This document shows, piece after piece, positions 21,400 to 51,654 of a stretch of DNA of 64,000 bases. The first letter of the stretch is position 1, and each line of letters starts with the position of its first letter. Source of the stretch: a virus (lineage: Duplodnaviria > Caudoviricetes); the IMG/VR virus record IMGVR_UViG_3300050119_000076, positions 537 through 64,536 of that record, one strand, 5' to 3'. Position numbers and translations under genes: made by a program. The notes under the pieces are model-generated. The model made no database searches. It saw only the letters and a list, made by a program, of their open reading frames with translations, and was not told where the DNA came from.

Positions 21400-21409
21400 G
21401 CAACCTAGT

Positions 21410-21893: not shown

Positions 21894-21921
21894 TTGACTG
21901 CCAATGAAAACAGCATATTAT
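21894..21921 (+). promoter_or_regulatory. Sigma70-like early promoter
   Basis: TTGACT-16 nt-TATTAT upstream of ATG 21955. Confidence 0.5.
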
Positions 21922-21954
21922 CTAACTCTAGAACGAAAACAGGGAATAAACGAT

Positions 21955-22257: not shown

Positions 22258-22505
22258 ACCAGTTTGATAGGAGAATGAATATGCCCTACACCTTACAAGC
22301 TGATCGAAACGGAAATATGATAATTTGTCATGATCAGCGCAAGCGTAACGGTTATACGATAATCGCTCGTGGTGGTTACGTTGAAATGATCTTGGCGCGC
22401 GCCATGCGCACAATCAAGAACTACAGCGAAGCGTGACATTCTGGCCTACGGCTCGTAATGGCCGTAGAGCAGAGCGTCAACGCTCTAGAAAGCGAGAAAA
22501 CATCA

Positions 22506-22849
22506 TGGTCGATGAAACATTGTTAGCGCGTCCTCATGTTCGCAAGCTTTACGAAATTACCTTGCCAATCTATGACAACTCCGGCAAGCAAACCGAAACC
22601 GCTCATAATCTTTTCAAGAAAGTCATTCTTGAAACGGTAGGTGGTTATTCGACTAGCTCGGGCTATGGTACATGGCGTGACGAAACCGGTCACATTTACG
22701 AAGACAAAAACATTGTCTATCGTATCGCGTGCGAGTATCATATTTTCGAGAGAGAAATTTTACCGAAGGCATTTGAATTGTTTCCTGACCAGCTCGCAAT
22801 TTTCCATGGCGATGTAGGTTGGGCATGGACAACGGCTCGCGCGAGCTAA
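22506..22849 (+). CDS. Early protein, possibly PII/GlnB-like (ferredoxin) fold
   Basis: YEITLP...VGGYSTSSGYGTWRD...FPDQLAIF pattern. Confidence 0.45.
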
Positions 22850-23184
22850 CTTTTCGGGTCGCCCTATTGAAAGTGAGGATTATTGCGGCCTGCCATTCAT
22901 TCTCAGGCGGATGGCAGTGCGGAATAATCAGTATAAAGGTCTAGGAGTAGGGACAATGAGATATCGCACTTACAAAACACAAGCCGGCGCGGAACGATAT
23001 CGCGAAAAGCTCTGCACAAAGTATCCTGAGCGGCGCGCGATGTTTTATGTCGGGGTTGAGCCACAAAGATTTTGGTTCTGTGTTTATTATCAATTACCGG
23101 ATGGAAGACCGCACCAACTATGTGCGGCTATGTGACATTGCGAGCGCTGTCTCGCGGAATAATCAGTGTAAAGGAAACTTAGGC

Positions 23185-23712
<528 letters not shown>

Positions 23713-24423
23713 TATGCCCTATTTCGCATGGCTAACAAACGATAACGATATGGCCGCGAAGCTTCGCGCAATCGATCAAGCTTATGATCGCGCCAAGGCC
23801 AAAGCCGCGCGTGGTCGTCTCGCTCTCAAGGTTCAAGGCTATCGCGACGCCAAGGCCGCACGCGAAGCCTCAATCGCGGCTCTAATGAAGGAACAAACCA
23901 AATGAGCAAATGGTTAGGAGATCTAAGCGATTACCAACGATATGCGGTGATCGCGGCGATTGCGACATGGTTTGCCCTTCCGCTTATCGCGTTGCTCTTC
24001 CTCTTGTTTGCGTCCTAGGAGCTAACCAAATGAGCGCGACAATTATTGACTTTGTGGCTTATCGTGCGAAGCGCGAGGCGACGACTACCATATGCGAGCG
24101 TGAGCTTGATGACTTGCTGCGGCCCTCCTTTGACCGGTCGCCTATCCCGCCGACACAAGCGCGCGAGTCGCGCTTCATGGGTTTAAGCGCCAATGAAATT
24201 TATAACCTTTTAATGGGCGATAGGGAGAAGAAATGAGCCGCAACTATCAAAATTCCGATGAGTTTCGTCGCGAAGACGCGCGCTTGTTCGCAAGGCTAGA
24301 CGCGCGAAACCAAGCTTTGCGCGCGACATTGGACGCGCTCGATTTGCCACCCTCGCAACAACCGCCTCGGAAATATGACCTAAAGGCAATCGAGCGCGAC
24401 TTGCGCGAGATCATGGAGTCGAA

Positions 24424-31451: not shown

Positions 31452-31751
31452 GCGTCAAAGATCAAAAAGGCGCGCGGCGCCGGATGCGGCTGCGCTACAA
31501 ACTTCCTCCCAAGCTCTTGCTCGGCGAGATCATTGCGCGCGAGCGGCAACAGGCCGTGCGCGAGAACGCACGAAAGAAGGCGGCGAAATGAGATATGTTC
31601 TTCTCACTCTTCTTCTAGCCTTTATTATCGGCCTTATGTTCTTTGCGCACGCGCCGGATGATCCGCGCTGGCATGAGCAACCAACACCACAATGCAAGTC
31701 CGGTTACGTGTTTGATCCTTGGCGGCGTTTTTGCGTGCCGGGATACGTTCC

Positions 31752-32804
31752 ATGAAATGGCTATCGCTAGATCTGGAAACTTCCGGCACACTGCCGGAGT
31801 ACGCGCTGCAGCCGTGGCGCGTGCGGCAGAAGAAAGCTTGGATCACTACCTGCGCATACACGGTGCGCAACGGCGCGGACTTTGCATCGCGCGGGAAGAT
31901 TTATCCGAGCTGCGCCGATCTGAGACGTATCCTTGAACGGGCGCACGAAGCTGGCTTTACGATCGTCGGTTGGAACGTGACTTTCGATATCGCATGGCTT
32001 CTTGCGTATGGATTGGGAGACATTGTGTTTAAGCTCCGATGGCTTGATGGAATGCGCCTCTGGCGTCATTACCACATGGAACCGGAGTACGACATGGACC
32101 GATCCAAAAAGAAATCCTACGGCTTGAAAACATGCGTCGCCGAGATCCTCCCGGACTTGGCAGGCTACGAAAATGGCATTGACTTTCAAACTGATGAACG
32201 CCCACATAGTGCAGAAGCCCTTAAACGCTTGCTCGCTTATAACAAGACCGACACGCTTGTAACGTACATGCTGGCCGGACATTGGTGGGGTCTACTCACT
32301 AAGCGGCAGCGATGCTGCGCGGGTCTTGAGGCGGCGGCTCTTCCTTTCGTGGCACAAGCTAATTTAGAGGGCGTGCGCGTTGATCGCGCGCGTCTAAAAG
32401 ACTTGGACGACGAGCTTGTGGCGATAGCGGCCCAATGTGCGAAAGAGCTAGAGAGCGACGGCGTGACTCCCGCAGTTATCCGATCCCCCGTACAGCTACG
32501 CAAACTGCTATATGATGATTGGAAATTGCTGCCGCCTGACCCGCGCGACGTTCGTCTCACGCCGAAGGGCGATATGAGTACCGACAAGGCTGCGCTACAC
32601 GAGCTTGCGCTGCTCGATCCGCGTGCTAGGCGTGTCCGCGATTACCGCGAGGCGCTTAACCTACGCTCCAAGTTCATAGGCTCGCTATTCAAGTCGGCTG
32701 CCTACAACGATGAACATGATCGCACGCACCCCGAGGCTATTTTGTTCGGCACTTCCACCGGACGCATGACATATGCGTCATCGCAAGGGAAGGGGGCAAA
32801 GTGA
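31752..32804 (+). CDS. polA: Family A DNA polymerase, N-terminal part (3'-5' exonuclease and thumb)
   Basis: DLETSG, GWNVTFD, YNKTD, SPVQL, STDKAAL, GTSTGRMT. Confidence 0.85.
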   Translation: MKWLSLDLETSGTLPEYALQPWRVRQKKAWITTCAYTVRNGADFASRGKIYPSCADLRRILERAHEAGFTIVGWNVTFDIAWLLAYGLGDIVFKLRWLDGMRLWRHYHMEPEYDMDRSKKKSYGLKTCVAEILPDLAGYENGIDFQTDERPHSAEALKRLLAYNKTDTLVTYMLAGHWWGLLTKRQRCCAGLEAAALPFVAQANLEGVRVDRARLKDLDDELVAIAAQCAKELESDGVTPAVIRSPVQLRKLLYDDWKLLPPDPRDVRLTPKGDMSTDKAALHELALLDPRARRVRDYREALNLRSKFIGSLFKSAAYNDEHDRTHPEAILFGTSTGRMTYASSQGKGAK

Positions 32805-33643
32805 AAGTCCAAACAGGGTTCGCCCTGCATCAAATGAAACGCGGCCCTAAGTTCCGCTCCGCTATTATCCCCCCGCCCGGAGACGTGCTCCTAGAGTTCG
32901 ACGCCGCTGGCCAAGAGTTCCGATGGATGGCGCTACAGTCTGGCGACCTGACGATGTTAAAACTCTGCCAGCCGGGGGAAGACCCGCATTGCTACATGGC
33001 CGCCGCGATCAAAGGTTGGGATTACGCTGAGATCATGCGTCTCCACAAAAGTGGAGACAATGTGGAGATTTCCGGGCCGCAGGGTGCTCGCATGTTCGGC
33101 AAGCTCGCGAATCTCTCGCTACAGTTCCGCACCTACGCGAAGCGACTGCGCATGGTCGCGCGAGTAGATTACGACCTGGCGATGAATCCTAGCGAGAGCG
33201 AGCATATATGGAGCACTTATCCTAGAACGTATCCACGCGTGAAAGATTACTGGTTTCTGAGTATTGACAAGGCGAAGCGTCTTGGCTACGCAGAGACCCT
33301 CGCAGGTCGGCGCGTACAGATCGCGGGCGATTGGTCCGGCAAGCAATCTTGGGCGATGGAGAGCACAGCCATTATAGTTCCCATCCAAGGGACCGGGGCC
33401 GATCAAAAATATCTTGCGTTAGCGTGCTTAAAGCCTTACCTTGTCGAACATGGTATCCGGTTCGCTTGGGACATGCATGATGGGCTTTACTTCTATTGCC
33501 CCGAGGCAAAAGCCGAGCGCGCACTAATTGATATAAAGGCGATCTTGGACAACCTACCTTATGAAGCTGCGTGGGGTTTCAAGCCGTCGATCCCGCTACC
33601 GTGGGACGCGAAGTCTGGCCCCTCATGGGGAGAATTAAAATGA
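32801..33643 (+). CDS. polA: Family A DNA polymerase, C-terminal part (palm/fingers)
   Basis: Motif A DAAGQEFR, motif B RMFGKLANLSLQF, PIQGTGAD, motif C MHDGL. Confidence 0.85.
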   Translation: MKVQTGFALHQMKRGPKFRSAIIPPPGDVLLEFDAAGQEFRWMALQSGDLTMLKLCQPGEDPHCYMAAAIKGWDYAEIMRLHKSGDNVEISGPQGARMFGKLANLSLQFRTYAKRLRMVARVDYDLAMNPSESEHIWSTYPRTYPRVKDYWFLSIDKAKRLGYAETLAGRRVQIAGDWSGKQSWAMESTAIIVPIQGTGADQKYLALACLKPYLVEHGIRFAWDMHDGLYFYCPEAKAERALIDIKAILDNLPYEAAWGFKPSIPLPWDAKSGPSWGELK

Positions 33644-37444: not shown

Positions 37445-39064
37445 ATGTTCGTACACGAAGCAACGCGAAGCTTAATGCTTCGCGCCGATGACCCATTGGC
37501 AATTCGTGAGGTGATCCCGCACAGCCGCATCATGGGCCATCCAGATTACAATATAGCGGTACAGCATACGGTTGAGTCCACGCGCATCCTGCGTAACATG
37601 GGCTACGAAGACACGCCGTCGCCGATCGCGGCTTACTATGATTGGCCAGGGAAGTTCACGCCGTTCGATCATCAACGTGTCATGGCTGAAGCGTACACCA
37701 TGCACAGCCGCATCTTTAATCTGAGTGAGATGGGCACTGGAAAGACCGCCGCATCGCTGTGGGCCGCCGATTGGCTCATGAAAGAGGGTAAGGTCAATCG
37801 TGTGCTCGTCGTCGCGCCGCTGTCTTCGTTGGAACGTATCTGGATGGAAGCAGCTTTCGACGTTACCATGCATCGCAAGGCGGTAGTTGTTCACGGGACG
37901 CGCGAGAAACGACAAGCCATGCTTGACAGCGGAGCTGACTTTTATATTATTAACCACGATGGTATTTCGATCCGCCCGATCCGCGAAGCCATCATGCGCG
38001 ATCCCCGCATCGACCTCGTCATCGTGGACGAAGGCGGCAAGTTCCGCAATTCTAAGACCGACAGATACCGCGCGCTTGCGGAGATAACCACCACCCGGCC
38101 TGACATGAGGGTGTGGTGGCTAACCGGAACACCGTGCCCCAATGCTCCATCGGACGTGTGGTCGCAGTGCCGCATCGTCAGTCCGGCCCGCGTGCCGCCG
38201 TACTTTGGGAAGTTCCGCAACATGACGATGTATGAAGTAGACTCACAGCATCATACTTGGAAGCCTAAGCCCGACGCTTACACTGTCGCGTTCAACGCGA
38301 TGCAGCCGGCCGTGCGGTTTAATAAAGACGACTGCCTAGATCTGCCGCCTGTGATGTCTGAGGACTGGCAGGCCGAGATGTCCTCCGACCAGAAGCGCGC
38401 TTACGACGAGATGCGTAATGAGATGTACATGGCGGACGTTGCAAATCAGTGCAAGGGCAAAGAGATTACCGCGGTCAACGCAGCGGACAAGTTGAACAAG
38501 CTTCGCCAAATTCTCTGCGGGGCAGTCAAGGTGACGGAGGATGTAGCAAAAGGTAAGAGCCCCTCTCAATATGTGATCCTCGATCATAAGCCTCGATTCA
38601 AGGTACTTATGGACGCCATCGAGACCGCCGCGACTAAGGTGCTTGTCGTCGTCCCGTTCAAGGGCATCATCCGATCGCTAGAGAAAGAGCTAAGCGAACA
38701 CTACAGCGTGGGGATGCTCAATGGTGACGTGCCTATAGGTAGGCGCAACGCGATCATTACCGACTTTAAGACCAAGACCGATCCGCATATCCTGCTCTGC
38801 CATCCGCAGGTCATGGCCCACGGGCTTAACCTTGTTGAAGCAAATGTCTTGATTTTCTATGCTCCGATATACTCTAATGACGACTACCGGCAAGTGATCG
38901 AGCGGTTCAATCGCCCTGGTCAGTTGCATAAGATGACGATCATTCGTATAGGAGCGCACCCATTGGACTGGTCCATCTATGCCACAGTTGACAATCGCGA
39001 TGATGGGCAGCAGAGTGTGCTACGCTTATATAAGTCAGTGATTTATGGAGACGACAATGTTTAA
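37445..39064 (+). CDS. SNF2-family (SF2) helicase
   Basis: EMGTGKT, IVDEG, LTGTP, HGLNL, QVIERFNRPGQ. Confidence 0.9.
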   Translation: MFVHEATRSLMLRADDPLAIREVIPHSRIMGHPDYNIAVQHTVESTRILRNMGYEDTPSPIAAYYDWPGKFTPFDHQRVMAEAYTMHSRIFNLSEMGTGKTAASLWAADWLMKEGKVNRVLVVAPLSSLERIWMEAAFDVTMHRKAVVVHGTREKRQAMLDSGADFYIINHDGISIRPIREAIMRDPRIDLVIVDEGGKFRNSKTDRYRALAEITTTRPDMRVWWLTGTPCPNAPSDVWSQCRIVSPARVPPYFGKFRNMTMYEVDSQHHTWKPKPDAYTVAFNAMQPAVRFNKDDCLDLPPVMSEDWQAEMSSDQKRAYDEMRNEMYMADVANQCKGKEITAVNAADKLNKLRQILCGAVKVTEDVAKGKSPSQYVILDHKPRFKVLMDAIETAATKVLVVVPFKGIIRSLEKELSEHYSVGMLNGDVPIGRRNAIITDFKTKTDPHILLCHPQVMAHGLNLVEANVLIFYAPIYSNDDYRQVIERFNRPGQLHKMTIIRIGAHPLDWSIYATVDNRDDGQQSVLRLYKSVIYGDDNV

Positions 39065-40858: not shown

Positions 40859-41293
40859 GTGATTATGTCCAATCTGCCTCAAGATTCGAAAGCTCGTAAG
40901 GAAGTACCGCTGGTCACTGGTCTGTTGCGGTACTTCCCTGACGCTCTTGCCGAAGTTGCAAAGGTCTCATTCTACGGCAATGAGAAACATAACCCCGGAG
41001 AGCCACTACATTGGGCGCGCGACAAAAGTACCGATCATCTCGACTGCGCTGGACGGCATTTGCTCGACGCTGGCGGCTTCGATGCGCCGGACTTTCCTGG
41101 TGCACCTCCGCAACGTCATACCGCAAAGCTCGCATGGCGCGCGCTTGCTGAACTACAGGTGGAGATCGAGCGAGATCGTGGCTCCGTGCCATATGACACC
41201 GCGCCATATGATCGCGCGCACGAACCGTGGGGACGCCCTGATACGGAAGTCCCCCTCAATGATCTCGCGGATGGCGAGCGCATAGCCGACTGA
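40859..41293 (+). CDS. dATP/dGTP diphosphohydrolase-like (DUF5664-type) protein
   Basis: ALAEVAKVSFYGNEKH...W...RHL...HTAKLAWRAL. Confidence 0.7.
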   Translation: MIMSNLPQDSKARKEVPLVTGLLRYFPDALAEVAKVSFYGNEKHNPGEPLHWARDKSTDHLDCAGRHLLDAGGFDAPDFPGAPPQRHTAKLAWRALAELQVEIERDRGSVPYDTAPYDRAHEPWGRPDTEVPLNDLADGERIAD

Positions 41294-44265
41294 TGGACAC
41301 CTTCGAGTTTCTTCGAACCGTATGGCCGGATGAAGGGCTGTACTGCATCGCTACTCCACAACGATCCAGCGATGGCAAGCAGGAGTGGTGGAAGCATTAC
41401 GTCTTCGAGACGATCGAGGACGCCGCCTCGCACGCGTTGAAGATTAGCGCGCTCATGCAGAACACCTACTTCTGCATGAACACGCTGGCGCAAAAAGAAG
41501 TATGGGACCCGACGAAGAAATCTAAGACGGGCGCGCCCGGCGGCATGCGTATACGGACGAAAGAGAACACGAAAGAATGCCGCGTCTTCTTCGCCGACCT
41601 GGACGTTGGTGAAGAAGATGGAAGGTTCGGCAGTCGCAGCGCCGCGCTGAACGGCCTCACCATTTTTCTTAATCAGACCGGGCTTCCGTGGCCCGGCGTA
41701 TCATCCTCCGGTCGGGGGTTGCATGTATTCTGGCCACTTACGGAGGCGCTCCCATCTGCTGTATGGGAGCAGCATGCAACCAAATTACTTCGGCTCGCGC
41801 AGCACTACGGCTTTCGCCTCGATCCTTCGCGCGTGAAGGATCGTACTAGCGTGCTTCGCGTGCCTGGCACTTGGCATCTGAAGGACCCAACGCACCCACT
41901 TCGAGTGGAGTTGCGGGTGCCTCCGGTGCGCATCCCTACTGCGGAGTTTCTTACTAGCTTAGACGTGGCATTTGCGGCTGCAGGAATTGCGGAGATTGCG
42001 CCAGCCAATCTCCGCATCGAGATCGATATGCCGGCGCACATCGCGGCGCTTGAGCCTAATATAAAACTTACCTATGAAGAAGGTCCACCCCCAACTCTTA
42101 AGACGCTGGGTAAAGTGTGCGCGCAGGTGCGCTGGATGCTACAGCATCCGGCCGAGGTGTCGCAGCCGCAGTGGTATCTCGGACTTCTCAACACGGTGCG
42201 GTTCTGTGAGGACGGCGATAAGCAAGCACGCGCTGTCTCGAAGTACGTTCGTGCCGATCACGGGCACTCGGCCGACGAAGTCGAAGAGAAGTTACAGCAG
42301 CTTAAGGATGGCAACTTCGGACCCGCAACTTGTGGCAAGATGGCTGAGCTGTGCGGCGAGGACCGCTGTAAGGTGTGTCCATTTTACGGTAAGCCCACGT
42401 CTTCCCCCGTCCATTTCGCGCGCACGTACCGGCCGCCGATTATTCATAAGACGCCTGAAGGCGTGGAGGTTGAGGTGCCTCCTGCCCCTCGCCCTTTTTC
42501 ACGTACCAAGGATGGGGTCCTTTTTACTTCGAAGACCCCGAAGGGCGTGCTAGTGGAGAAGGTGATCTATCCATATGACCTGTATCCATTTCAGATTTTG
42601 GACAACGCGGATAAGCGCACCAAATCATTTATGTGGCATGCGACTTTGCCACTACGCGAGCCGATTAACTTTGAAATAGCGGGGCCGGCTACAGGCGATT
42701 TGCGGATGCTGCATGAGGTGTTCGTTAACGCCGGCGTGAATGTCGATCCTGATAACCTGCCACACATGAGGAAATACGTGATCGCTTATATCCGCGAGCT
42801 TCAGAAACGAACGCTCGATCAGCAGCAGCATTCGCATCTCGGATGGACTGCTCGCTACAAATCATTCGTGCTCCCTGATGGCGTCATTAGCTTCAGCGAT
42901 GGGTGCGTGCAGACCAAGCGTGCGCTTCTTAGTCCAGGCGCGCAGAACGCATCAGACACCGTCTGTAGTGATGGCACGTTGGAGAAGCAGGTCGAGCTGC
43001 TACGGTTCTACAATCAACCGCAGTACACACATCTACAGTTTGCAGTCGTCGCTGGCCTCGCCGCGCCAATCTTTTATATGACTGGGCACAAAGGCGCGCT
43101 AGTCAATATGAGTGGCGAGTCAGGCGCCTCCAAGTCCACGGCTCTGTACAGCGCCGCCAGCTTTTGGGGAGACCCCGATCGGTACACGATTAACGGAACG
43201 AACAAAGGGTTCACCACGCTCGCGCGGCATACGCGCATGGCGGTACTCTCTAATCTGCCTGTCTGCGTGGACGAGATCACGGGGATGGATCATGCCGAAG
43301 CGCGTGACATGGCGCTCAGTGTTTCGCAGTTCACTGGCCGCGTGGGGTGCGCAACCTCGGGCGACGAGAAAAAGAGCGCCCTTACGCTTAAGTCCACTGT
43401 CATGATAACGACAGCGAACAACAGCTTGCATGAGGGGCTGTCGCTCAAGAGTGCCGCCGGCACGGCCAGCTCGATGCGTGTCTTCGAGATCACTTGCCCG
43501 AAGCAGCCCAAGAAAGATAAGGAGGCGTCCGATGACTATCTGCGCGAGCTACGCCACAACTACGGTCACGTTGGCCCTGTATTCATGGAGTACATCCTGG
43601 CTAACCACGATAGTGTTGGAAAGCGCGTTATCGACAAGATGCGCAAGCTGGACATCCTTGGTTCCGTCGAGCCCGCCGAACGCTTCTGGAGCGCCCTCGC
43701 CGCCTCCGTTCTGGTAGCCGCGGAGATCGCTGAAGAGATAGGGCTTCTTGCGTTCAGTCCGCTGGTTCTGCAGGACTGGATTATGAATGAGCAGCTTCCC
43801 ATGATGCGCGGCGCCGTGAAGTCTAACTACTCGAACGCGCTGGACGTGCTTATGGAGTACATCGAGCATGTCGCTGGTGACACACTAGTTGTGCGTCCAC
43901 GCGAGGGTAGCATCCCAACCATCGATAAAGGTGTGCGCGCCGGGCTGCTGGCGCGCTACGAGTTGGGGCCGGGGAGCGAGAAGGTTCTCTTTGTAAGAGA
44001 GGACTCGTTCAAGAATTACTGTCTACGCGGCGGAGCAGTGTACCACGCGTTAGTGATCGAGTTGATAAAGTCGAAGGTCGCCACGCAGCGGCGTGTGATC
44101 TTAGGCGCGGGTTGCTCCGACTACTCGAAGGGGCAAACGCGCGTGCTTGCCATTGATATGACACACCCACTCGTTACGGGTCAGCCGAAGTTCACAGTGA
44201 TTGAAGGTGGTCTGCGGGTTAAGGTATCCGAGGACCAGGAAGAGGCGCAGGAGAGTAAGTCATGA
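41293..44265 (+). CDS. Primase-helicase (RepB-like primase plus DUF927/ATPase)
   Basis: ADLD, SGRGLHVFW, VLRVPGT; Zn-like C..C; HLGW; GESGASKST; CVDEIT; NYGHVG. Confidence 0.85.
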   Translation: MDTFEFLRTVWPDEGLYCIATPQRSSDGKQEWWKHYVFETIEDAASHALKISALMQNTYFCMNTLAQKEVWDPTKKSKTGAPGGMRIRTKENTKECRVFFADLDVGEEDGRFGSRSAALNGLTIFLNQTGLPWPGVSSSGRGLHVFWPLTEALPSAVWEQHATKLLRLAQHYGFRLDPSRVKDRTSVLRVPGTWHLKDPTHPLRVELRVPPVRIPTAEFLTSLDVAFAAAGIAEIAPANLRIEIDMPAHIAALEPNIKLTYEEGPPPTLKTLGKVCAQVRWMLQHPAEVSQPQWYLGLLNTVRFCEDGDKQARAVSKYVRADHGHSADEVEEKLQQLKDGNFGPATCGKMAELCGEDRCKVCPFYGKPTSSPVHFARTYRPPIIHKTPEGVEVEVPPAPRPFSRTKDGVLFTSKTPKGVLVEKVIYPYDLYPFQILDNADKRTKSFMWHATLPLREPINFEIAGPATGDLRMLHEVFVNAGVNVDPDNLPHMRKYVIAYIRELQKRTLDQQQHSHLGWTARYKSFVLPDGVISFSDGCVQTKRALLSPGAQNASDTVCSDGTLEKQVELLRFYNQPQYTHLQFAVVAGLAAPIFYMTGHKGALVNMSGESGASKSTALYSAASFWGDPDRYTINGTNKGFTTLARHTRMAVLSNLPVCVDEITGMDHAEARDMALSVSQFTGRVGCATSGDEKKSALTLKSTVMITTANNSLHEGLSLKSAAGTASSMRVFEITCPKQPKKDKEASDDYLRELRHNYGHVGPVFMEYILANHDSVGKRVIDKMRKLDILGSVEPAERFWSALAASVLVAAEIAEEIGLLAFSPLVLQDWIMNEQLPMMRGAVKSNYSNALDVLMEYIEHVAGDTLVVRPREGSIPTIDKGVRAGLLARYELGPGSEKVLFVREDSFKNYCLRGGAVYHALVIELIKSKVATQRRVILGAGCSDYSKGQTRVLAIDMTHPLVTGQPKFTVIEGGLRVKVSEDQEEAQESKS

Positions 44266-44846
44266 TACCTACAGGCCCCGTTGAAGGTTCAGTAATGCAG
44301 TTTAAGAGCGGTCGGTATTTCGACATCCTTAAACCGTGGGATGAGCCTGACATCTTAGTTGACGACCTCGCACACTCACTCTCTAATCTGTGCAGATACA
44401 CTGGCCACTCGGCGAGAAATTATACCGTCGCCGAGCATTCCGTGTGGTGCAGTTATCTTGTGCCGGAGGAAGAGGCCTTTGACGCACTGATGCACGATAC
44501 TGCCGAGATGATAACAGGCGACATCGCGAGCCCGTTCAAGTTTTGCCTTGGTGATACCTATAAAAAATTAGAGAAGCCGATCAATGAACGGTTGGCTCTG
44601 CAGTTCGATTTGCATTATCCGTGGTCGCAAGCAGTGCGGGACGCCGATCTTGCGATGCTCGCGGCGGAGCGTAGGCAACTCATGATGCCGATAGGTGAGT
44701 GGAAATGTTTGACCGGCGTGGTACCGGCTCCGATCGCAGTGGAGTGTTGGGAGCCGTGGCACGCTAAGGAAAAGTTCCTAAGCCGCCTGCGTGCGTTGGC
44801 CTATAGGCGCGGGCTGCATATTCCGCTTTTAGTGCGGAATATATAA
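44262..44846 (+). CDS. HD-domain 5'-deoxynucleotidase (YfbR-like)
   Basis: LAHSLSNLCRYTGH...YTVAEHS...LMHDTAE..TGDI...ADL. Confidence 0.85.
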   Translation: MIPTGPVEGSVMQFKSGRYFDILKPWDEPDILVDDLAHSLSNLCRYTGHSARNYTVAEHSVWCSYLVPEEEAFDALMHDTAEMITGDIASPFKFCLGDTYKKLEKPINERLALQFDLHYPWSQAVRDADLAMLAAERRQLMMPIGEWKCLTGVVPAPIAVECWEPWHAKEKFLSRLRALAYRRGLHIPLLVRNI

Positions 44847-44852
44847 CATGAG

Positions 44853-44929
44853 TGGTCGCGCAGGACAGATTCGAACTGTCGATTTCCTGGGTATGAGCCA
44901 GGCGAGATAGACCGCTTCTCTACCGCGCA
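44853..44929 (-). tRNA. tRNA-Met(CAU), initiator-like, CCA encoded
   Basis: TGCGCGG-TA-GAGAAGCGGTCTATCTC-G-CCTGG-CTCATAC-CCAGG-AAATC-GACAG-TTCGAAT-CTGTC-CTGCGCG-ACCA. Confidence 0.9.
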
Positions 44930-44933
44930 ATAA

Positions 44934-45260
44934 GTGGTGGAGCTTCTGTTGCTAGGTGCTCCACCGAACCCCGACTCGATTACGCGGCTAAGCGCATCTC
45001 GTCATATGCGACATTATCGTTCGCATTTCCATGTTGGTCATTCACGGGAACCACCCCGAGCACACTGTACACCTTACACGCCCGATCGAACCTGTTTCGC
45101 CCCCATCAAATACGCGATCACGTATAAAATGACCTTATACGTTCTCGCGTATATGGTGGAGGCGGCCGGTACTGCCCCGGCGTCTCGAACGCTTACGCTG
45201 CACGATTCAGCGCCATCTTCCGTTGCCAACAACGAAACTCTCGGTCAGGATAAGCCGCCT
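44934..45260 (-). ncRNA. ssrA: Circularly permuted two-piece tmRNA: acceptor piece ends 45154, spacer 45105-45153, coding piece 45104-~44934
   Basis: ...GCCGGGGCAGTACCGGCCGCCTCCACCA; GGGGGCGAAACAGGTTCGA; G3-U70 pair; tag ANDNVAYDEMRLAA* at 45024-44980. The upstream boundary (45260) is approximate. Confidence 0.92.
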
Positions 45261-45299
45261 GACCTTATGAATGGGGCGCGCGGCCTCGCGCCGGTGACT

Positions 45300-45482
45300 T
45301 TAGTAGGTACCGCCCGGACCCAACAAGAGCCGGATGAGAATAATCCCCAAGATCACCAGAAGTAGCCACGCAACACCGCCGCCAACCGGGCCGCCGGGGA
45401 TGCGATCACGGCCGACCCATAGGCCGCCGCTGCACACGATAATCCAAAGCACAGTAACAAGTAAAATGATTGACGGTTGCAT
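45300..45482 (-). CDS. Small 2-TM membrane protein (DUF3309-like)
   Basis: TM-GGPVGGG-TM, resembling 20184-20327. Confidence 0.5.
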   Translation of the reverse strand: MQPSIILLVTVLWIIVCSGGLWVGRDRIPGGPVGGGVAWLLLVILGIILIRLLLGPGGTY

Positions 45483-45486
45483 GATC

Positions 45487-45759
45487 TTAACCCTTCTCTT
45501 TGTCCGCGTCTCGAAGGGCGAGCACCTTAGCGCGCTCCTCAGATATTACTTCTTTTCCACCTGCGATCGTTATCAACTCGCCACGCCGGGGGAGCGGGAG
45601 CGTAGCGCGTACCAACTTAGCTAAAGAAAGAGCTTCCTTCTTGAAGGAAGGAGTCTTAAGCAAGTCCGCATCCACGAGCAAGTCACGGATAGCATCCGTG
45701 CGCCGCGCGATGACATCTTCCTGATACCCCGGCTCGTAGGCGTCAACGTCGTCGCTCAT
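45487..45759 (-). CDS. Hypothetical protein
   Basis: MSDDVDAYEPGYQED...; GAGGG RBS. Confidence 0.5.
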   Translation of the reverse strand: MSDDVDAYEPGYQEDVIARRTDAIRDLLVDADLLKTPSFKKEALSLAKLVRATLPLPRRGELITIAGGKEVISEERAKVLALRDADKEKG

Positions 45760-45796
45760 GGCGCAGCCCTCGGCTAATGGTGAAACCGCTTGCAGA

Positions 45797-47182
45797 TTAC
45801 GCCTCCGGGGAGGCGCTATCAAGTGACAAATCGAAGGGCACGGCCGAGATGTTCCGTAGGCGTTCCCCTAGATTCTTGTCGTAAGTGACTGCAGTCATTG
45901 ATCTTCCTGCCCCACCGAAGCCCTTAGCGGCATGCCATGAGTCGGCTGGTGCAAGTGTCTGGAATGTCTCGCAAACAACGCCTCCGACCTCTTTACAGAA
46001 TTTTTCTGTGTGGTGGACGTGACCCCCTACCGCGTAGCGGAACCGGGTGCGGCCCCACATTGCCGGCTGGTGGGCGGCCATGATGCCTGGCATGTCCTTG
46101 ATCTTCGCCATGTCGTTGTGCGTGCCAGCGAGCATCGTCAGACCGTGCTCTAAGTAGAAATAGCGAGACGAGCTGCAATGCACGATAACGCGAGGGTTGT
46201 TATGAAAGAACGCCCACATGGAAAGCTCCAGCGTGGGGGTCGACTCCGGGTCATGGTTGCCGGGCAGGCAACGTACCTCGACGGTCTCATGCTTAGTCAG
46301 CGCCAACTCGATGCATTGGACTAGCAGCATCACGCCGGCCTTATAAACTTTGGCGCGACGACTATCGACATCGAGCGCGTGGCCACTTGCGGGCGTCTGG
46401 TTGTTCGAGCTATCGGCATGGAAGAAGTCTCCGAGCGAGACAACAATCGCGCGCTTTGAGTTTGGTGTGGCACGTACCAGATCGACCATTGCGTTCTGCA
46501 GGAGCTTGGTGCTGATCTTCAAGTCGTAATCGAAGCCTGTCTCTTCACGCCAGCTAAACATGCCGAGATGGTGATCCGCGATGTAGTACGCGGTCAGGTA
46601 ATCATCGATCGTTTCTTCTGGCGCCGGGCCAAGCTCCGATCGGCCAGTGTACTCTTCGAATGCAGCCTTGACCGCCTCGATCGCGAGCACACGCTGCTCA
46701 GCTCCGGGCTTAGACTGTACCCACTTGCCGACAACTTTGTCATCGCGCACATACGCAGAGATTTTTGAAATCTCGTGATCTGGCGGTAGCTCGTAAATCT
46801 CGGTGTGTTCGGGCTTCTGCTGAATATACTCTTTGAGAAGGTTGCCATCGGGGTCGCGCGCCGTAGTGACTTGCGTCGTTTCGAAGCCTGGCAGGATGGG
46901 CTCGAATCCTAGTTTGCCCTTCTTCGCAGCGTAGGGGGGGTAGAGATCCCAATCAGGGCAGAAGTGCTGATTACCTTTTGCGCGGCGTCGCTCTTGTAGA
47001 GATACCCATTCGCAAATGGTTGACTTAGCGGTATTAGTGATGGCACCAGTGGACTTAAGGTGCTCGTAGGTCGCAGCAACGGCGCTGCCCTTACCATCCA
47101 TGCCGCGGTACATCTTGTACGGGGCATAGCCTTCCGATAGGAACCGTTCGATGGTCCCTTTGAAAAGTTCGTCACGGGTCAT
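45797..47182 (-). CDS. Calcineurin-like metallophosphoesterase
   Basis: ADHHLG, GDFFH, GNHD, THND, GHVHH. Confidence 0.8.
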   Translation of the reverse strand: MTRDELFKGTIERFLSEGYAPYKMYRGMDGKGSAVAATYEHLKSTGAITNTAKSTICEWVSLQERRRAKGNQHFCPDWDLYPPYAAKKGKLGFEPILPGFETTQVTTARDPDGNLLKEYIQQKPEHTEIYELPPDHEISKISAYVRDDKVVGKWVQSKPGAEQRVLAIEAVKAAFEEYTGRSELGPAPEETIDDYLTAYYIADHHLGMFSWREETGFDYDLKISTKLLQNAMVDLVRATPNSKRAIVVSLGDFFHADSSNNQTPASGHALDVDSRRAKVYKAGVMLLVQCIELALTKHETVEVRCLPGNHDPESTPTLELSMWAFFHNNPRVIVHCSSSRYFYLEHGLTMLAGTHNDMAKIKDMPGIMAAHQPAMWGRTRFRYAVGGHVHHTEKFCKEVGGVVCETFQTLAPADSWHAAKGFGGAGRSMTAVTYDKNLGERLRNISAVPFDLSLDSASPEA

Positions 47183-47189: not shown

Positions 47190-49400
47190 TCAAAGCATTG
47201 GTTGCTGTGGCATTGAAGCCATAGGCATGCTTGGCATTGCCGGCATTGTCAAGCCGGGAGGCGACGCCATAGGAACGGCCGGCATGGATTTCGTTGACTT
47301 GCCAGCCTTCGCAGATTTCACCTTCGTGGTGCCCTTGGCGTAACCTGAGGGCTTCTTGTCCGGCATACCGCCTGCCGTACCGGCTCCCTTGACAGTGGCC
47401 TTAGCAAGCTGTGGCGTGGCCATTGCGGCCGCGCCAGCCCGAGCACCCTCATTGGTAGTGCTGCCCATTGAATACACTTCATCGACACCATCCGCGAAAC
47501 CTTGTGGCGCTGTCACACGAATGCTTGGGTCTCCGCCAGTGTTGATGCTGAAGCCCCCAGGAGCCCGCACACCGGCAAGGTACGCCGCAGTGTTAGCATC
47601 AGGGGCGCCCGAGCCAAGGCCGCTACCGACCGGCTGAAAGCTTGCTTCTTGTGCCGCGCGCATCGCGCCTAGCGAGGGTGCTATTGACATCCCCATACCG
47701 GGTGAAAAGCCGGCTGATGCGAATGGAGGCGGAACAGCAGCCGGAGCAATCGGCGCTACGCGCCCAAGCCCATCAGTCGGTTGCGCCTGGAGCAATCCGC
47801 CCGGTCCGGCCTGCGCTGCACGAGGGGCCTGAGGGGATGCAAGCTGATTTAGATAGCTGCCGAGGTTGTCATAGCGTGGCATGCCCCGACTATCTCGGCC
47901 TTTGTATGGTGTGTTGGTGCTGTACACATCCTCGCCAATGTTCGCGTCGCCGTCAGCAAAGCCAGGAACGCCGCCACGAATAACCTGTGGCAGCGGTGCT
48001 CTTGCGGCGGGCGCAGGACCATAGCCGCCGTCAGATGCGATCGGGTCTTCAGCACGCGTCTCAGAGACCAAAGGAATCGTCGTATAGCCCTGCGTGAACG
48101 GGTTCTTTCCATCCAGGAGGCCGCCACCTAGTCCGATCGGGCCACCGTTCGCTTCCATCTTGCCGACAACATCTGGAGTACCGTCAGCGTAGAAACGCGC
48201 GAAAGGCACCATGCCGCCGAGAGCCAACTGCATAACGGGTGTGTCGCCGCCTGTCGGCGTTTGTGGCGCGCGACTCTTGGATATTTTCGTGGCGCCCGTC
48301 GCGTGGCCTGGAGGGGTTTTCTCTTTCTTCGAAAGCTCTTTGGGATTGGTACGCGGAAGATTCTGTGATGCGAAGTCAGCGCCTGTCAGGGGTGCGCGGC
48401 CAGCGTCCGTGCCGCCACCATCGCGCATCGTCGGAGCGGCCTTCTTCGGAGCAGCCTGTACTTTCTTTCGACTAGCCGCCTGCGCCGCGGGCTGACCGCC
48501 CGTGCCTCCGGCGTTCGTCGCGGCCATACGCATGAGGCCGATCTTGTTGAGATGCTCGATGATGCCGCGGCCAACGTGCTCCGCTGCGCCCTTGTTGAGC
48601 ACTGCTTCACCCGGCGATAGCATGGCTGGCACAATATCAGTCGGACCGGCCTTTGATCCCTTAGCCGGTAGCCCCTTGCCGGAAGCCTTCTGAGAAGGCT
48701 TCTGAGTGTCTGCGGTGCCCTTGGCCCACTGTGCGATCCCCGTGTAACCGGCGCCAGTCGATTCGGGTGTCTGTGGCTGTGGCGTATAAACGCTAGAATT
48801 AGGGTCCGGCGCGGGTGTGCCTCCTTCCTGAGCTATATGGCCGAGGGCTTGTCCGTTCTGAATTTGATCGTCGGTCAGTCCGTACATACGTGCTTGTGCG
48901 ACTGTCAACATAGTTTTGCCACTTGCAGCCTCGCCTTGTTTCTGACGCAGAGACTCCAAAGATGGCATCGCGCCTATCTGCGCTGCGCGTAGACCTACGA
49001 GAGACGGCGCAACTTCAGCCTGAGCCTGCGAAAGCGCGCCAGTACCCATCTGTGCAATCGCCTCGGCTGGGATACCAATTCGTGCCTGTGCCTCACGAAG
49101 CATAGCTTCGGAGGGGGTTGCGAATGCTTGCTGTGTCGTAAGGCCAGCCTGTGCATTGCGCATGGCGATATCGGCTGCGGACACGGGACCTAGGGTCTTG
49201 CCTTGTTCGCGGGTTGTGAAGGCCGATGCACGCTCGGCTGCTTGCTGAGCCTCCGCGGTCGGTCCGAACTGCGCGGCCTGCTCGCCAGTCAGGGCGGCCT
49301 GCGCTCTCACGACTTGAGCTTGCGCCAAATTCGCGGGAATGCGCGATGCCGCTTCAGCACCTAGCTGTTTCTGATAGGTAGAGAGATCGCCCATCGCCAT
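47190..49400 (-). CDS. Putative internal virion/DNA-ejection protein
   Basis: A/Q/G-rich; TDIVPAMLSPGEAVLN motif; repeated aromatic-A-x-G motifs. Confidence 0.55.
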   Translation of the reverse strand: MAMGDLSTYQKQLGAEAASRIPANLAQAQVVRAQAALTGEQAAQFGPTAEAQQAAERASAFTTREQGKTLGPVSAADIAMRNAQAGLTTQQAFATPSEAMLREAQARIGIPAEAIAQMGTGALSQAQAEVAPSLVGLRAAQIGAMPSLESLRQKQGEAASGKTMLTVAQARMYGLTDDQIQNGQALGHIAQEGGTPAPDPNSSVYTPQPQTPESTGAGYTGIAQWAKGTADTQKPSQKASGKGLPAKGSKAGPTDIVPAMLSPGEAVLNKGAAEHVGRGIIEHLNKIGLMRMAATNAGGTGGQPAAQAASRKKVQAAPKKAAPTMRDGGGTDAGRAPLTGADFASQNLPRTNPKELSKKEKTPPGHATGATKISKSRAPQTPTGGDTPVMQLALGGMVPFARFYADGTPDVVGKMEANGGPIGLGGGLLDGKNPFTQGYTTIPLVSETRAEDPIASDGGYGPAPAARAPLPQVIRGGVPGFADGDANIGEDVYSTNTPYKGRDSRGMPRYDNLGSYLNQLASPQAPRAAQAGPGGLLQAQPTDGLGRVAPIAPAAVPPPFASAGFSPGMGMSIAPSLGAMRAAQEASFQPVGSGLGSGAPDANTAAYLAGVRAPGGFSINTGGDPSIRVTAPQGFADGVDEVYSMGSTTNEGARAGAAAMATPQLAKATVKGAGTAGGMPDKKPSGYAKGTTKVKSAKAGKSTKSMPAVPMASPPGLTMPAMPSMPMASMPQQPML

Positions 49401-49593: not shown

Positions 49594-51654
49594 TCACTCC
49601 GTAGAAGCAATGTTGAGGTTGGTGTTGTTGGACTGGCTCACGCTCTCCTGGCTCTCGCCGATATTAGAGGCCGTCTGCGAGGCGCTGTTGCTCGTCTGGT
49701 TGCTATTGATGAACTCCGTAACGTCGCTCCGGCTAACCTGCCAGCTAGACGAAGATCCGAAGTTGACGTTGTCCTGACGTGCGCGATGGCTTGCCCATGT
49801 AACGGAGCCGAGTGCCGATGCAGCGATTTGAGCCTCAACCTGCGCGCCTACCTTGGCAGCATCGGTCGCGATCGACTTGGCCGTCATATAAAGCTGCGCG
49901 TTCATATTGGCAGCCGAGACACCGACTTGCGTAGCCTGCAGCGCCTCATCTAGCGCAGCCTGCCACTCCTTGATAATCGCGTCGTTGTACGCACTGGTGC
50001 CGGAAACCTCCGACGCATAGATGCGCGCGGTTGCTTCATTCTGCGCGGCTATGGCCTGCACTTGTGCAGACTGACCAACGACCAGGGCTTTATAACCTTC
50101 GTACTCGGCCACGTAAGCATCAAGTTGCGCTTTGTAGACAGCGATATTTTCGTCGATCTCTTTGGCAACGGCCGTAACCTGCGTAGAGAAGACATCAGCC
50201 TGCGTCCCGAAGACCTGCTCCTTGACCTGCTCGCCTTGCAGCAGCGCCTTATAGGCTTCGACGTTCGCCGTATAGGCGTTGATCTGCGCGGCGTAGGCAG
50301 CCACTTCCTGCCCGAAAATTTGCACCTTGAGGCTCTCGACCTGTGCCTCGACCTGGATAATCTGGATCTCGCCCTTGAAGACCTCGATCGATGCCAGCGC
50401 AGCGTCGACCTCGACTTTGTACTGCTGGACCAAGGCCGTGTTCATTTGAACCTTGACCATCTCGGCTTCAAGCTCGGCGCGGTACGCTGCCACTAAAGCC
50501 ATCTGCCCCTGGATCTTTGCGTTGTAGATGTCGATCGTGGCACGATACACGGCGACCTGTGCTGTAAACGCTTGGATCTGCGCGTTGTAGATCGCGACAC
50601 CGGCATCGGTCATATACTTACATGTCTCGAAGCGGCGTTGCTCGGTCTGGTTGGCGTAGTCGATCAGCTTGCCCTCAAGCTGTGTCGCACTATCCAGCGC
50701 CATCTTGATATTATCTTGTTCAAGTTTGGCCTGAGCGACAGCAATATCTCGCGATGATCCAACCAACACAAAGGCCAGTTCAGTTTGGATCTTGATCTGC
50801 GCGTCAATAAACACACCGGGCGGGAAGGCGTAGCCCATCGTCTCCATGCGATCTAGTGCGGCGATTGCGTCGCCCGCCTGCTTCATTTCCCGCTCACGTT
50901 CACGATTCCAGATGTTCTCTTCGATCGCGGGCGGCAGGCCGGTGTTAGTTCCCGTGTTGCCAATGTCGAGACGCTGTAGCAGCGTCGCTTGCATCTCGCT
51001 AAGAAGAGCATCGGTGTACGGGGCGTTGGGGATATAGTCCACGATGCCAGGGGAGACAATCGTCAGTACCGGCGCTGTCGCGCTTAGCGTCGGCAGCGTC
51101 ACGCCGCCGAAGGCATAGGTCTGCAATGATAAGAGGCTAGGCGGCGCCGGGAGATCCACGCTGACCGTCGGGTACGTGAAGTTGGTATCGATCGCCGGCG
51201 CGCCAGGCTCCACTAAGAAAGGTTGCGGGGGCGCATTGGGAAAGTTGATCGTCGGAGGCGTCGCCGTGAACAGCGGGAACACGTCCGTGATCGCGAGCTG
51301 CGCGTTGAACGCCGCCGGAATAGGTGGCGCGCTCCACACAATAGGCTCGACAACTGGAGGCGCCGGTACGGTGACGGCAGGCCCTAGGGTGTTGATCGGG
51401 TAAACTGGCGTGATGACTGGCGGCACAAGAGATAAGGCCAGCGTCCCAAGCTGCTGAATGTAGCTGTCCGCGGTAGCAGCATGATCTTCGGCAAAAGTAG
51501 TGACGTCCTGCGCGCCGATGAAATCTTGTTCAATCGGCAGGATGACTGGCGGCGACGGCGGTAGCGGCGGCACTGGTACGGGAGACGACGGAGTCGTCGG
51601 CTTCAGCGGCGGCACTGCTGTCGGTGGCGGGACGGGGATATAGAGATCGACCAT
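49594..51654 (-). CDS. Virion structural protein (Pro-rich N-terminus, long coiled coil)
   Basis: GYAFPPG; heptad YxAQI repeats. Confidence 0.6.
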   Translation of the reverse strand: MVDLYIPVPPPTAVPPLKPTTPSSPVPVPPLPPSPPVILPIEQDFIGAQDVTTFAEDHAATADSYIQQLGTLALSLVPPVITPVYPINTLGPAVTVPAPPVVEPIVWSAPPIPAAFNAQLAITDVFPLFTATPPTINFPNAPPQPFLVEPGAPAIDTNFTYPTVSVDLPAPPSLLSLQTYAFGGVTLPTLSATAPVLTIVSPGIVDYIPNAPYTDALLSEMQATLLQRLDIGNTGTNTGLPPAIEENIWNREREREMKQAGDAIAALDRMETMGYAFPPGVFIDAQIKIQTELAFVLVGSSRDIAVAQAKLEQDNIKMALDSATQLEGKLIDYANQTEQRRFETCKYMTDAGVAIYNAQIQAFTAQVAVYRATIDIYNAKIQGQMALVAAYRAELEAEMVKVQMNTALVQQYKVEVDAALASIEVFKGEIQIIQVEAQVESLKVQIFGQEVAAYAAQINAYTANVEAYKALLQGEQVKEQVFGTQADVFSTQVTAVAKEIDENIAVYKAQLDAYVAEYEGYKALVVGQSAQVQAIAAQNEATARIYASEVSGTSAYNDAIIKEWQAALDEALQATQVGVSAANMNAQLYMTAKSIATDAAKVGAQVEAQIAASALGSVTWASHRARQDNVNFGSSSSWQVSRSDVTEFINSNQTSNSASQTASNIGESQESVSQSNNTNLNIASTE

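Follow-up and report, generated by a model that had tools for sequence, protein, structure and literature searches.

A complete gene for a two-piece, permuted transfer-messenger RNA (tmRNA) of the alphaproteobacterial (alpha) type is found on the minus strand of the stretch analysed here, the window, which comprises 64,000 nucleotides and corresponds to bases 537-64536 of an IMG/VR virus record that is 64,536 bp long and has a CheckV completeness of 100. The gene lies between phage genes and retains its helices, its CCA end and an open tag frame of its own. On our analysis it is probably a working tmRNA that contributes to ribosome rescue with the aid of host factors.

The two-piece tmRNA gene and its phage context

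The Rfam model alpha_tmRNA (RF01849) matches positions 44933-45275 of the minus strand at 134.3 bits (E 1.8e-36; model 1-355 of 355), and tmRNA_permuted (RF04321) matches 44980-45214 of the same strand at 114.8 bits (E 1.1e-21; model 1-213 of 213), the gathering cut-offs of 50 and 47 bits, respectively, being exceeded across the full model in both cases. The end of the RF04321 match is exactly the stop codon TAA of the tag. Together with a tRNA (RF00005), these are the three matches above gathering score in the window. An earlier note on this DNA had proposed a complete two-piece tmRNA at 44934..45260 and had named the Rfam alpha_tmRNA model as a check; the full-length match, well above the cut-off, bears the proposal out. 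The gene proper runs from approximately 45242 to 44933, close to the extent given in that note: the Rfam match begins with ~35 nt (45275-45241) that align to a part of the model that is promoter in cellular genes and are not homologous here.

The order of the two pieces is permuted, since the CCA (45156-45154) precedes the coding piece (from 45104), and the label 'Permuted' is also assigned by ARAGORN when run with -ps80. The acceptor piece ends in ...GCCGGGGCAGTACCGGCCGCCTCCACCA, with the last A at 45154, and its 3' region reads GCCGG-GGCAGUA-CCGGC-CGCCUCC-A-CCA. Between the two pieces lies a hairpin with an outer stem UAUACGCGA...UCGCGUAU and an inner stem ACGUAUAAG/UUUAUACGU. The landmarks of the earlier note, namely the CCA end at 45154, the 49-nt hairpin spacer and a coding piece starting with GGGGGCG at 45104, can all be read in the sequence. 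The parts are as follows:

44933..45275, minus strand: alpha_tmRNA precursor gene, with acceptor piece, spacer and coding piece (RF01849)
45154..45242, minus strand: acceptor piece, 5' limit approximate (sequence and covariance model (CM) alignment)
45218-45237, minus strand: 8-bp hairpin of the acceptor piece with a UUGG loop (listed pairs)
Within 45154..45242, minus strand: 5' strands of P2a, P2b and P2c (CM alignment, listed pairs)
45165-45181, minus strand: T-arm GCCGG-GGCAGUA-CCGGC (sequence, CM alignment)
45158-45164, minus strand: acceptor 3' strand CGCCUCC (sequence)
45154-45157, minus strand: discriminator A and encoded CCA (sequence)
45105..45153, minus strand: intervening segment, a 49-nt hairpin (sequence and fold)
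44933..45104, minus strand: coding piece, starting GGGGGCG (sequence, CM alignment, pairs)
45098-45104, minus strand: acceptor 5' strand GGGGGCG, with G3 at 45102 (sequence)
45035..45058, minus strand: putative pseudoknot PK1, formed by stem 1 (CGGG/CCCG) and stem 2 (UGGUU/GACCA) and lying upstream of the resume codon (9 of 9 pairs standard)
44980..45024, minus strand: tag reading frame from GCG (45024-45022) to TAA (44982-44980), 14 codons and stop (ARAGORN -ps80)
44936..44971, minus strand: 3'-terminal pseudoknot, stem GGUGGAGC/GCUCCACC with GGGU:ACCU in its loop (helices 10 and 11)

The acceptor stem comprises seven base pairs (GGGGGCG/CGCCUCC), includes the alanine identity pair G3-U70 and is followed by the discriminator A, while the T-arm consists of a 5-bp stem and a 7-nt loop of the GGCRGUA type. 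The coding piece contains, in addition to PK1 and the tag frame, the D-loop analogue GAAACAGGUUCGAUCGG, the 3' strands of P2c, P2b and P2a, and the 3' pseudoknot, which carries the conserved loop CAACAGAA. In both the minimum free energy and the centroid folds the spacer hairpin is closed by the acceptor stem, with z = -3.86 for a stretch of 461 nt.

Detection of the gene depends on the program and its settings. With defaults, ARAGORN reports a single gene in the whole window, a tRNA-Met(CAT) at 44853-44929 on the minus strand, and misses the tmRNA; at the lowered threshold of -ps80 the permuted gene is found and its tag is marked 'not identified'. The ARAGORN run put forward beforehand in the earlier note would therefore, at default settings, have wrongly dismissed the finding, and the default result is a false negative. 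That the open reading frame (ORF) track misses the gene, as the same note remarked, is true, though ordinary for an RNA gene. The default settings also call a tmRNA in only 22 of 61 loci (L098-L158) that share a 28-mer of the T-arm and acceptor strand with the window copy. Since ARAGORN misses the window gene and 39 of these 61 loci, published ARAGORN-based counts of phage two-piece tmRNAs are probably underestimates.

Phage genes are found on both sides of the tmRNA: PHROG matches identify a major head protein (9902-10984), a head-tail adaptor/portal-like protein (12223-14526), a helicase (37445-39064), a primase (41293-44265) and tail proteins at 54-61 kb. Searches of the window with PF01668 (SmpB), PF00589 (tyrosine integrase) and PF00239 (resolvase) gave no match at E <= 1, while control genomes respond. 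The absence of an SmpB gene agrees with what had been noted from the sequence. So does the status of the tmRNA as a whole gene rather than an att fragment, given its full length and the lack of a tyrosine integrase or resolvase. According to the available parts of two reports (PMC9004378, PMC11915505), integration into ssrA is frequent, and fragments of the gene are often found in prophages. The sequence might therefore be host ssrA DNA retained by a phage that uses this gene for integration, or whose ancestor did so. We regard such an attP relic as barely credible: the model is matched from 1 to 355 rather than over a 3' fragment, neither a tyrosine integrase nor a serine recombinase is found at E <= 1, and none of 401 alphaproteobacterial genomes has a near-identical ssrA, although an att site must match its target.

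The arrangement is not an assembly artefact. At least part of a 1-kb stretch of this region is contained in 17 sequencing runs from 13 studies, one of which may be the source of the record, and eight of the runs contain at least half of its words; all 17 are labelled as peat, soil, freshwater or permafrost metagenomes, with no RNA run among them. Logan contigs from four runs of four other peat or soil studies contain window-like pieces with 0 differences, although some bins are uncovered in some runs. These include bridging contigs of 833 nt (44842-45674), 786 nt (44200-44923, phosphatase to tRNA) and 164 nt (44907-45070, tRNA to tmRNA), by which the junctions are confirmed. Some other short pieces, which differ at 2-6 positions over the T-arm or the tRNA, come from other organisms.

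Base pairing, tag peptide and origin

All 57 base pairs written out for the window copy are standard pairs; they cover the 5' hairpin of the acceptor piece, P2a, P2b and P2c (16 of 16 pairs), the T-arm, the acceptor stem, and both stems of PK1 and of the 3' pseudoknot. The window copy was aligned by MAFFT with 30 cellular alphaproteobacterial genes and three sequences sharing its T-arm (L159, L105 and L160), giving 34 sequences in which 77.8% of cells are paired, as against 70.1% after shuffling, with none of 500 shuffles reaching the observed value. Changes on both sides of a pair number 36 against an expected 19.7, and all slid controls drop to 33-51% paired. P2a, the T-arm (helix 6) and the acceptor stem (helix 7) are 100% paired, with both-sided changes across the alignment in four of the five P2a pairs and three of the five T-arm pairs. 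The U-G column of the G3-U70 pair is kept in 34 of 34 alpha-type tmRNAs, in accordance with the 7-bp acceptor stem and alanine identity pair described in the earlier note. In the 3' pseudoknot, helices 10 and 11 are paired at 97.8% and 94.0%, with both-sided changes in two of four and eight of eight pairs, and GU/CG and UA/CG switches covary.

Four helices score poorly in this alignment (P2b, P2c, PK1 stem 2 and the 5' hairpin, at 40-64% paired, with P2b and P2c at 59-60%). As MAFFT sets them in differing registers, their support is the pairing of the window copy together with the CM alignment, in which one P2b pair and, by the register of that alignment, two pairs of the 5' hairpin are marked as non-standard. 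The PK1 helices 8 and 9 are 76.6% and 44.7% paired in the imposed register; three of the four stem-1 pairs are invariant, and a UG[G/A] : [C/U]CA core covaries in cellular copies as judged by eye. Relative to the cellular consensus, pairs 1 and 3 of the T-stem and several P2b pairs are flipped on both sides in the window copy with pairing kept; structural constraint has therefore acted on the evolution of this copy.

The tag frame, GCG AAC GAU AAU GUC GCA UAU GAC GAG AUG CGC UUA GCC GCG UAA, encodes ANDNVAYDEMRLAA*, a tag of 14 residues whose resume codon is GCG (Ala). This is the intact tag claimed in the earlier note, and the same peptide is read by ARAGORN with -ps80. Cellular alpha tags, which ARAGORN read in 30 of the 35 loci given, are of 10-13 residues and follow the form ANDN...[A/R/M][L/V/A]AA (ANDNYAEARLAA, ANDNVAQARLAA, ANDNVASDLRMAA and ANDNSATEGRLAA are among them), with the ANDN start in 29 of the 30. 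The phage tag keeps the ANDNVA... and ...RLAA ends around a longer, acidic middle (YDEM). A pattern for YDEMRLAA* had one match in metagenome contigs, at a locus with no tmRNA, and was rejected as chance. The tag has 0 occurrences in one tmRNA-database supplement file of PMC11915505, a file that may not list tags.

The additional acidic stretch, the length of 14 residues and the failure of ARAGORN to recognise the tag raise the question as to whether the phage tmRNA competes for SmpB, and whether its tag shifts the choice of adaptor or protease or damps host trans-translation. There is a precedent of a kind, as the available part of PMC11915505 describes a tmRNA of mycobacteriophage DS6A, devoid of a coding sequence (CDS), that inhibits the endogenous tmRNA in Escherichia coli. 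The window copy, unlike that of DS6A, has a full tag frame, and its recognition ends are ordinary, being ANDN... and ...RLAA as in the cellular ANDNVAQARLAA and ANDNYAEARLAA. We consider interference of this sort very improbable.

As to the origin of the gene, a blastn search of 50,697 phage records at E <= 1e-5 returned matches to the tRNA part only and no similarity to the tmRNA. Among the 401 alphaproteobacterial genomes (a tally that includes one unpublished genome, G256), 149 have a blastn match, confined to conserved blocks, the best being 72% over 131 nt. RF01849 scores above its cut-off in 116 of 121 sampled genomes, one of which (G056) is unpublished. Excluding G015 and G035, the 113 full-length cellular matches reach 158-313 bits, mostly 220-270, versus 134 for the window copy, and only G035 (a 0.5-Mb genome, 123 bits) and G015 (a contig of a Phreatobacter metagenome-assembled genome (MAG), 138.5 bits) come near that value. 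The Phreatobacter locus, on a 7-kb contig with the 28-mer, is 63.7% identical to the window gene; its two neighbouring ORFs belong to no Pfam or PHROG family and do not tell a cellular from a viral contig.

The 28-mer occurs in 58 IMG/VR contigs and in three contigs from 185,579 species genomes, all three being MAG contigs; one of the latter is probably the same as an IMG/VR contig with the 28-mer, both being 19,246 bp long and the two loci having given identical results. A cellular-type 29-mer is found in at least 120 IMG/VR contigs, and the two exact T-arm patterns together in at least 178. Although the ratio of 58 viral contigs to three might suggest a virus-only clade, whole-gene identity to the viral copies sharing the 28-mer is ~61-71%, no higher than to cellular genes, and the 29-mer is itself viral in at least 120 contigs. 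This idea was for that reason rejected, and is kept only within the combined reading of tmRNA and tRNA given below. We conclude that none of the sampled cells was a recent source of the gene, which may belong to a tmRNA lineage that circulates in phages.

As a separate observation, a Verrucomicrobiales MAG (G016) contains three different alpha-type tmRNA loci on three contigs (L160, L162 and L163; 88, 79 and 74 bits). Since one of these adjoins a manA RNA motif (L162, 1283-1490), the loci appear to be binned phage contigs rather than cellular ssrA.

The accessory block and the neighbouring tRNA

The tmRNA is part of an accessory block of ~3 kb (44.2-47.2 kb) that contains a phosphatase, a tRNA, the tmRNA, ORF60, ORF90 and an exonuclease:

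44262..44846, plus strand: dNMP phosphatase-like gene (YfbR-like), convergent with the tRNA and tmRNA (phrog_318, E 2.3e-55; PF12917 weak)
44809..44838, strand not assigned: hairpin between the convergent phosphatase (plus) and tRNA (minus), candidate bidirectional terminator (sequence)
44853..44929, minus strand: tRNA(CAU), 'tRNA-Met', initiator-like, 3 nt downstream of the tmRNA (ARAGORN; RF00005, 55.4 bits)
45275..45292, minus strand: G+C-rich hairpin GGCGCG...CGCGCC without a T-run, between ORF60 and the tmRNA (sequence, fold)
45300..45482, minus strand: ORF60, small hydrophobic protein directly upstream of the tmRNA, with the ribosome-binding-site-like GAGAAGGG (frame read)
45487..45759, minus strand: ORF90 (frame read)
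45797..47182, minus strand: DNA repair exonuclease-like gene at the upstream end of the block (phrog_704, E 2.3e-88)

The minus strand thus reads, in order, tail and structural genes, exonuclease, ORF90, ORF60, hairpin, tmRNA, 3 nt, tRNA(CAU) and hairpin. No Pfam or PHROG family was found for ORF60 or ORF90, and no riboswitch or other Rfam RNA lies near the tmRNA at E <= 1. The hairpin that closes this order contains a terminator-like site at 44809-44826 on the plus strand, within a longer stem AUAUUCCGC/GCGGAAUAU read from the sequence; it has no clean T-run on the minus strand, and its function as a terminator is a prediction. Whether the G+C-rich hairpin at 45275-45292 is a processing or stability element is put here as a question.

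The major head protein has 184 relatives in IMG/VR, of which the 80 retained are 67-79% identical, and the closest cultured phage is Pseudomonas phage Rollin, with 41.5% identity in this protein. Thirteen related records longer than 30 kb were examined, seven of them 97-100% complete by CheckV. The dNMP phosphatase is found in 0 of the 13, and ARAGORN reports 0 tRNA and 0 tmRNA genes in four complete relatives. In these four, gene order is conserved as judged by tblastn: in three, the primase is followed within ~70 to 1,300 bases by homologues of 47190-49400 and 49594-51654, while in the fourth (G002) the homologue of 49594-51654 lies ~1,750 bases after the primase. The exonuclease is missing at the syntenic site in all four, a 39% homologue being found elsewhere in one of them (G005). 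This conserved order in relatives without the block identifies 44262-47182 as an accessory insertion at a convergent junction. An exonuclease-based locus search of IMG/VR for closer relatives carrying the gene found none, though the window's own record, or a very near one, may be absent from the collections searched.

The tRNA(CAU) appears initiator-like but not canonical. Bacterial initiator tRNAs are marked by a C1xA72 mismatch, three G-C pairs at 29-31:39-41 and a purine11:pyrimidine24 pair; here A11:U24, G30:C40 and G31:C39 are present, while 29:41 is U:A and a U-G wobble stands at 1:72. The tRNA shares ~80% identity with the tRNA-Met genes of Rhizobium phage RR1-A, Sinorhizobium phage NV1.1.1 and Mesorhizobium phage Cp1R7A-A1, none of which has a tmRNA beside it; in the stretches shown for RR1-A and NV1.1.1 there is no other tRNA. 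Four of five alphaproteobacterial genomes have no match to it, and the fifth has one short match (26 nt, E 0.0098). None of the 61 loci that carry the 28-mer has a tRNA immediately after the coding piece, and three have a tRNA-Glu ~450 nt further on. When the 3' loop of the tmRNA and the D-arm of the tRNA were combined in one pattern, IMG/VR gave three matches, with no Rfam family at any of them, and these were discarded as chance. Because the tmRNA and its tag are of the alpha type, and in view of this tRNA, an alphaproteobacterial host, perhaps Rhizobiales-like, is weakly indicated and seems somewhat more probable than not.

Divergence from cellular counterparts is seen in both RNAs (the tmRNA has 134 bits against 158-313, and the tRNA lacks a match in four of the five genomes, with a short one in the fifth), and both stand in one cassette. 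They may accordingly be viewed as spare parts that replace host copies cleaved by toxins or defence nucleases, and the available part of PMC10264068 argues that defences directed at tRNAs are evaded by phage tRNAs. Divergence would, however, also be expected from drift within a phage lineage, no tmRNA-targeting nuclease is linked to the host, and no anti-defence gene is recognised in the accessory block by Pfam or PHROG. We consider a counter-defence function improbable. The earlier note had raised as possibilities both the replacement of a cut host tmRNA and a redirection of rescue; nothing favours either over plain supplementation.

A further, doubtful reading takes the two RNAs together as a co-processed 'translation repair' cassette, with the T-arm marking a lineage that circulates mainly in phages. 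Were this so, an RNase P cut at the tRNA would let a promoter-less tmRNA mature from a late phage transcript, initiation and rescue would continue despite the depletion of host tRNA-fMet and tmRNA or their cleavage by toxins or defence nucleases, and the GCCGG/CCGGC T-arm lineage would not be re-captured from hosts each time.

Other features of the genome may be recorded here. An 842-aa terminase-like ORF (14653-17181, minus strand) matches contiguous genes of relatives with its residues 1-73 and ~402-842, and residues ~74-401 form an insertion with a weak LAGLIDADG_3 match, likely an intein or homing endonuclease. Two overlapping ORFs (31719-32804 and 32801-33643, plus strand) make up the family-A DNA polymerase and match consecutive parts of phrog_17, and the four complete relatives show this split too. 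A 2,062-aa ORF (996-7184, minus strand) matches giant phage proteins with its C-terminal ~500-600 residues, including the DarB-like antirestriction family phrog_10089 (E 4.2e-09), and belongs to no Pfam family. Finally, the G+C content of 20001-24000 is 46-51%, compared with ~57% elsewhere in the window; this stretch, at the divergent junction of the head block (minus) and the replication block (plus), may be a regulatory or origin region.

Proposed working and comparison with known tmRNAs

In the reading that we favour, the gene would have been taken up into one lineage of a phage family of ~60-64 kb, within the ~3-kb accessory block, where the replication module (plus) meets the tail/structural module (minus). 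In the absence of a promoter of its own, we infer expression by read-through, the tmRNA being transcribed at the distal end of a minus-strand unit exonuclease-ORF90-ORF60-tmRNA-tRNA(CAU). By analogy with known two-piece tmRNA and tRNA processing, host RNase P would cut 5' of G45104 and 5' of the tRNA at 44929, the latter cut setting the 3' end of the coding piece. The spacer hairpin would be lost and the CCA at 45154 exposed by 3' trimming, as in established two-piece tmRNA biology, and the two pieces would stay joined through the acceptor stem and the P2 helices. Host AlaRS would then charge the tmRNA via G3-U70, and host EF-Tu and SmpB, the latter from the host because the phage has none, would deliver it to stalled ribosomes. 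Translation would resume at GCG and A-ANDNVAYDEMRLAA would be appended, the ...LAA end forming the usual ClpXP-type degron. The phage would probably benefit by having additional ribosome-rescue capacity, and an additional initiator-like tRNA, while its messages are translated.

Cellular alpha ssrA genes have what resembles a promoter in the first 35 nt of the RF01849 match, as TATAWN occurs at a fixed offset in 29 of 30 (L195-L224) and CTT at offset 3 in 27 of 30. The first ~35 positions of the model are therefore the ssrA promoter, and matches there say nothing about the RNA. Two viral alpha-type tmRNAs, L105 and L160, have a TGGTATAAT-like extended -10 motif just upstream according to the alignment, and the window copy has none. 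A promoter-like site at 45041-45013 (minus strand, inside the coding piece) and a terminator-like site at 45650-45633 (minus strand, inside ORF90) were treated as chance.

Several points weigh against a working tmRNA. Among the 13 related phage records, RF01849 and RF04321 are each found in 0, and as the gene is a singleton, conservation within the phage lineage cannot be shown. The back-translated tag pattern and a 26-mer from the 5' end of the coding piece have 0 matches each in IMG/VR, and the 0 differences across four studies allow no test of covariation, synonymous change or selection. In the MAFFT alignment PK1 stem 2, P2b and P2c are only 44.7-60.1% paired, which reflects register problems. 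The sole sigma-70-like site in 44500-46000 is that inside the coding piece, with none upstream, and in place of TATAWN or CTT the window copy forms a hairpin, GGUCAGG/CCUGACC. Moreover, compatibility with host SmpB, AlaRS and ClpXP is assumed.

These points lead to the question as to whether the tmRNA-tRNA pair simply arrived with a mobile block, is little expressed if at all, confers no benefit and will decay or be lost. The absence of the tmRNA from 13 of 13 related records (seven of them at least 97% complete), the lack of any tRNA or tmRNA gene in the four complete relatives, the want of its own promoter and the failure of pattern searches to find a second copy in IMG/VR or metagenome contigs would all be in keeping with such a neutral passenger. 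However, a decaying copy only ~65-72% identical to any other tmRNA found should show broken pairs, and here every helix and the tag frame are intact, and neither the invariant G-U nor the CCA nor the conserved D-loop analogue has been lost. Furthermore, read-through commonly gives expression of tRNAs and tmRNAs that lie at the end of a phage operon. A passenger without function is thus regarded as unlikely, and a functional tmRNA in ribosome rescue is the reading preferred here.

The window copy resembles cellular alpha ssrA, of which the two-piece tmRNA of Caulobacter, described by Keiler, Shapiro and Williams in 2000, is reportedly the prototype, in its permuted order, 7-bp acceptor stem with G3-U70, encoded CCA, T-loop GGCRGUA, D-loop analogue GAAAYAGGWUCGA, P2 helices, putative PK1, alanine resume codon, ANDN...LAA tag and 3' pseudoknot with CAACAGAA. 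It is of a short form lacking a segment of ~45 nt after the stop codon, as are 13 of the 30 aligned cellular copies. In contrast to cellular genes, its T-stem is GCCGG/CCGGC (pairs 1 and 3 flipped) rather than of the CCSGG type, it is devoid of the CTT-N-TATAWN promoter of 29 of 30 cellular genes, its tag has 14 residues instead of 10-13, a tRNA follows after 3 nt, and the gene resides in a phage whose genome has no SmpB gene.

The 58 IMG/VR contigs with the 28-mer are identical to the window copy in T-arm, acceptor strand and CCA, have the alpha-type architecture and encode tags that follow the same pattern. Four 28-mer loci that were passed through Rfam scored 68-88 bits with RF01849 in three cases and 138.5 bits in the fourth (L159). 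Spacers at the viral 28-mer loci range from 3 to ~250 nt by a rough regular expression, compared with 49 nt here, and the tag end ...EMRLAA is common to the window tag and two viral sequences (ANDNFAPEMRLAA in L100/L153 and L105).

Phage tmRNAs as such have been surveyed previously. The available part of PMC9004378 reports that tmRNA genes occur in 402 out of 18,146 phage genomes and show 133 unique structures, of which ARAGORN classes 53 as two-piece, and PMC11915505, likewise available in part, lists 79 bacteriophage sequences among 97,179 and describes RF04321. Permuted genes are recorded in the former for Caulobacter phiCbK-like phages, Sphingobium phage Lacusarx, Roseobacter phage DSS3_MAL1, Pelagibacter phages HTVC008M and Mosig, Methylophilales phage Melnitz, cyanophages, and phages of Stenotrophomonas, Citrobacter, Bordetella and Pseudomonas. 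As phage two-piece tmRNAs are thus already documented, the window gene adds one more member to a known kind. It is distinguished by a small, non-marine phage family, by its position in an accessory island, by the missing promoter, by the joined tRNA(CAU) and by a tag not found elsewhere.

With the published phage two-piece tmRNAs, as far as the available text of PMC9004378 describes them, it shares a complete permuted ssrA in a phage without integrase or SmpB. The joined tRNA(CAU) sets it apart from them, and Melnitz has a riboswitch where the window tmRNA has none at E <= 1. The entries of that survey for alphaproteobacterial hosts and marine phages are of 130-322 kb, whereas the window phage has 64.5 kb and belongs to another, uncultured peat/soil family; size alone is not new, since the table of the survey includes a smaller phage with a permuted tmRNA (Pseudomonas phage Phi-S1, 40 kb). 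The one-piece tmRNAs of large phages (mycobacteriophage Bxz1-type, Streptomyces, Lactococcus), as given there, likewise depend on host SmpB, but they have unpermuted genes and hosts in other phyla. For the function of phage tmRNAs, the available part of PMC9004378 offers only hypotheses, namely that hijacked translation machinery is kept running or that proteins are tagged for recycling. The window gene bears on this question as a compact case beyond the marine T4-like and jumbo phages: a 64.5-kb uncultured peat/soil phage in which the tmRNA is clearly an add-on.

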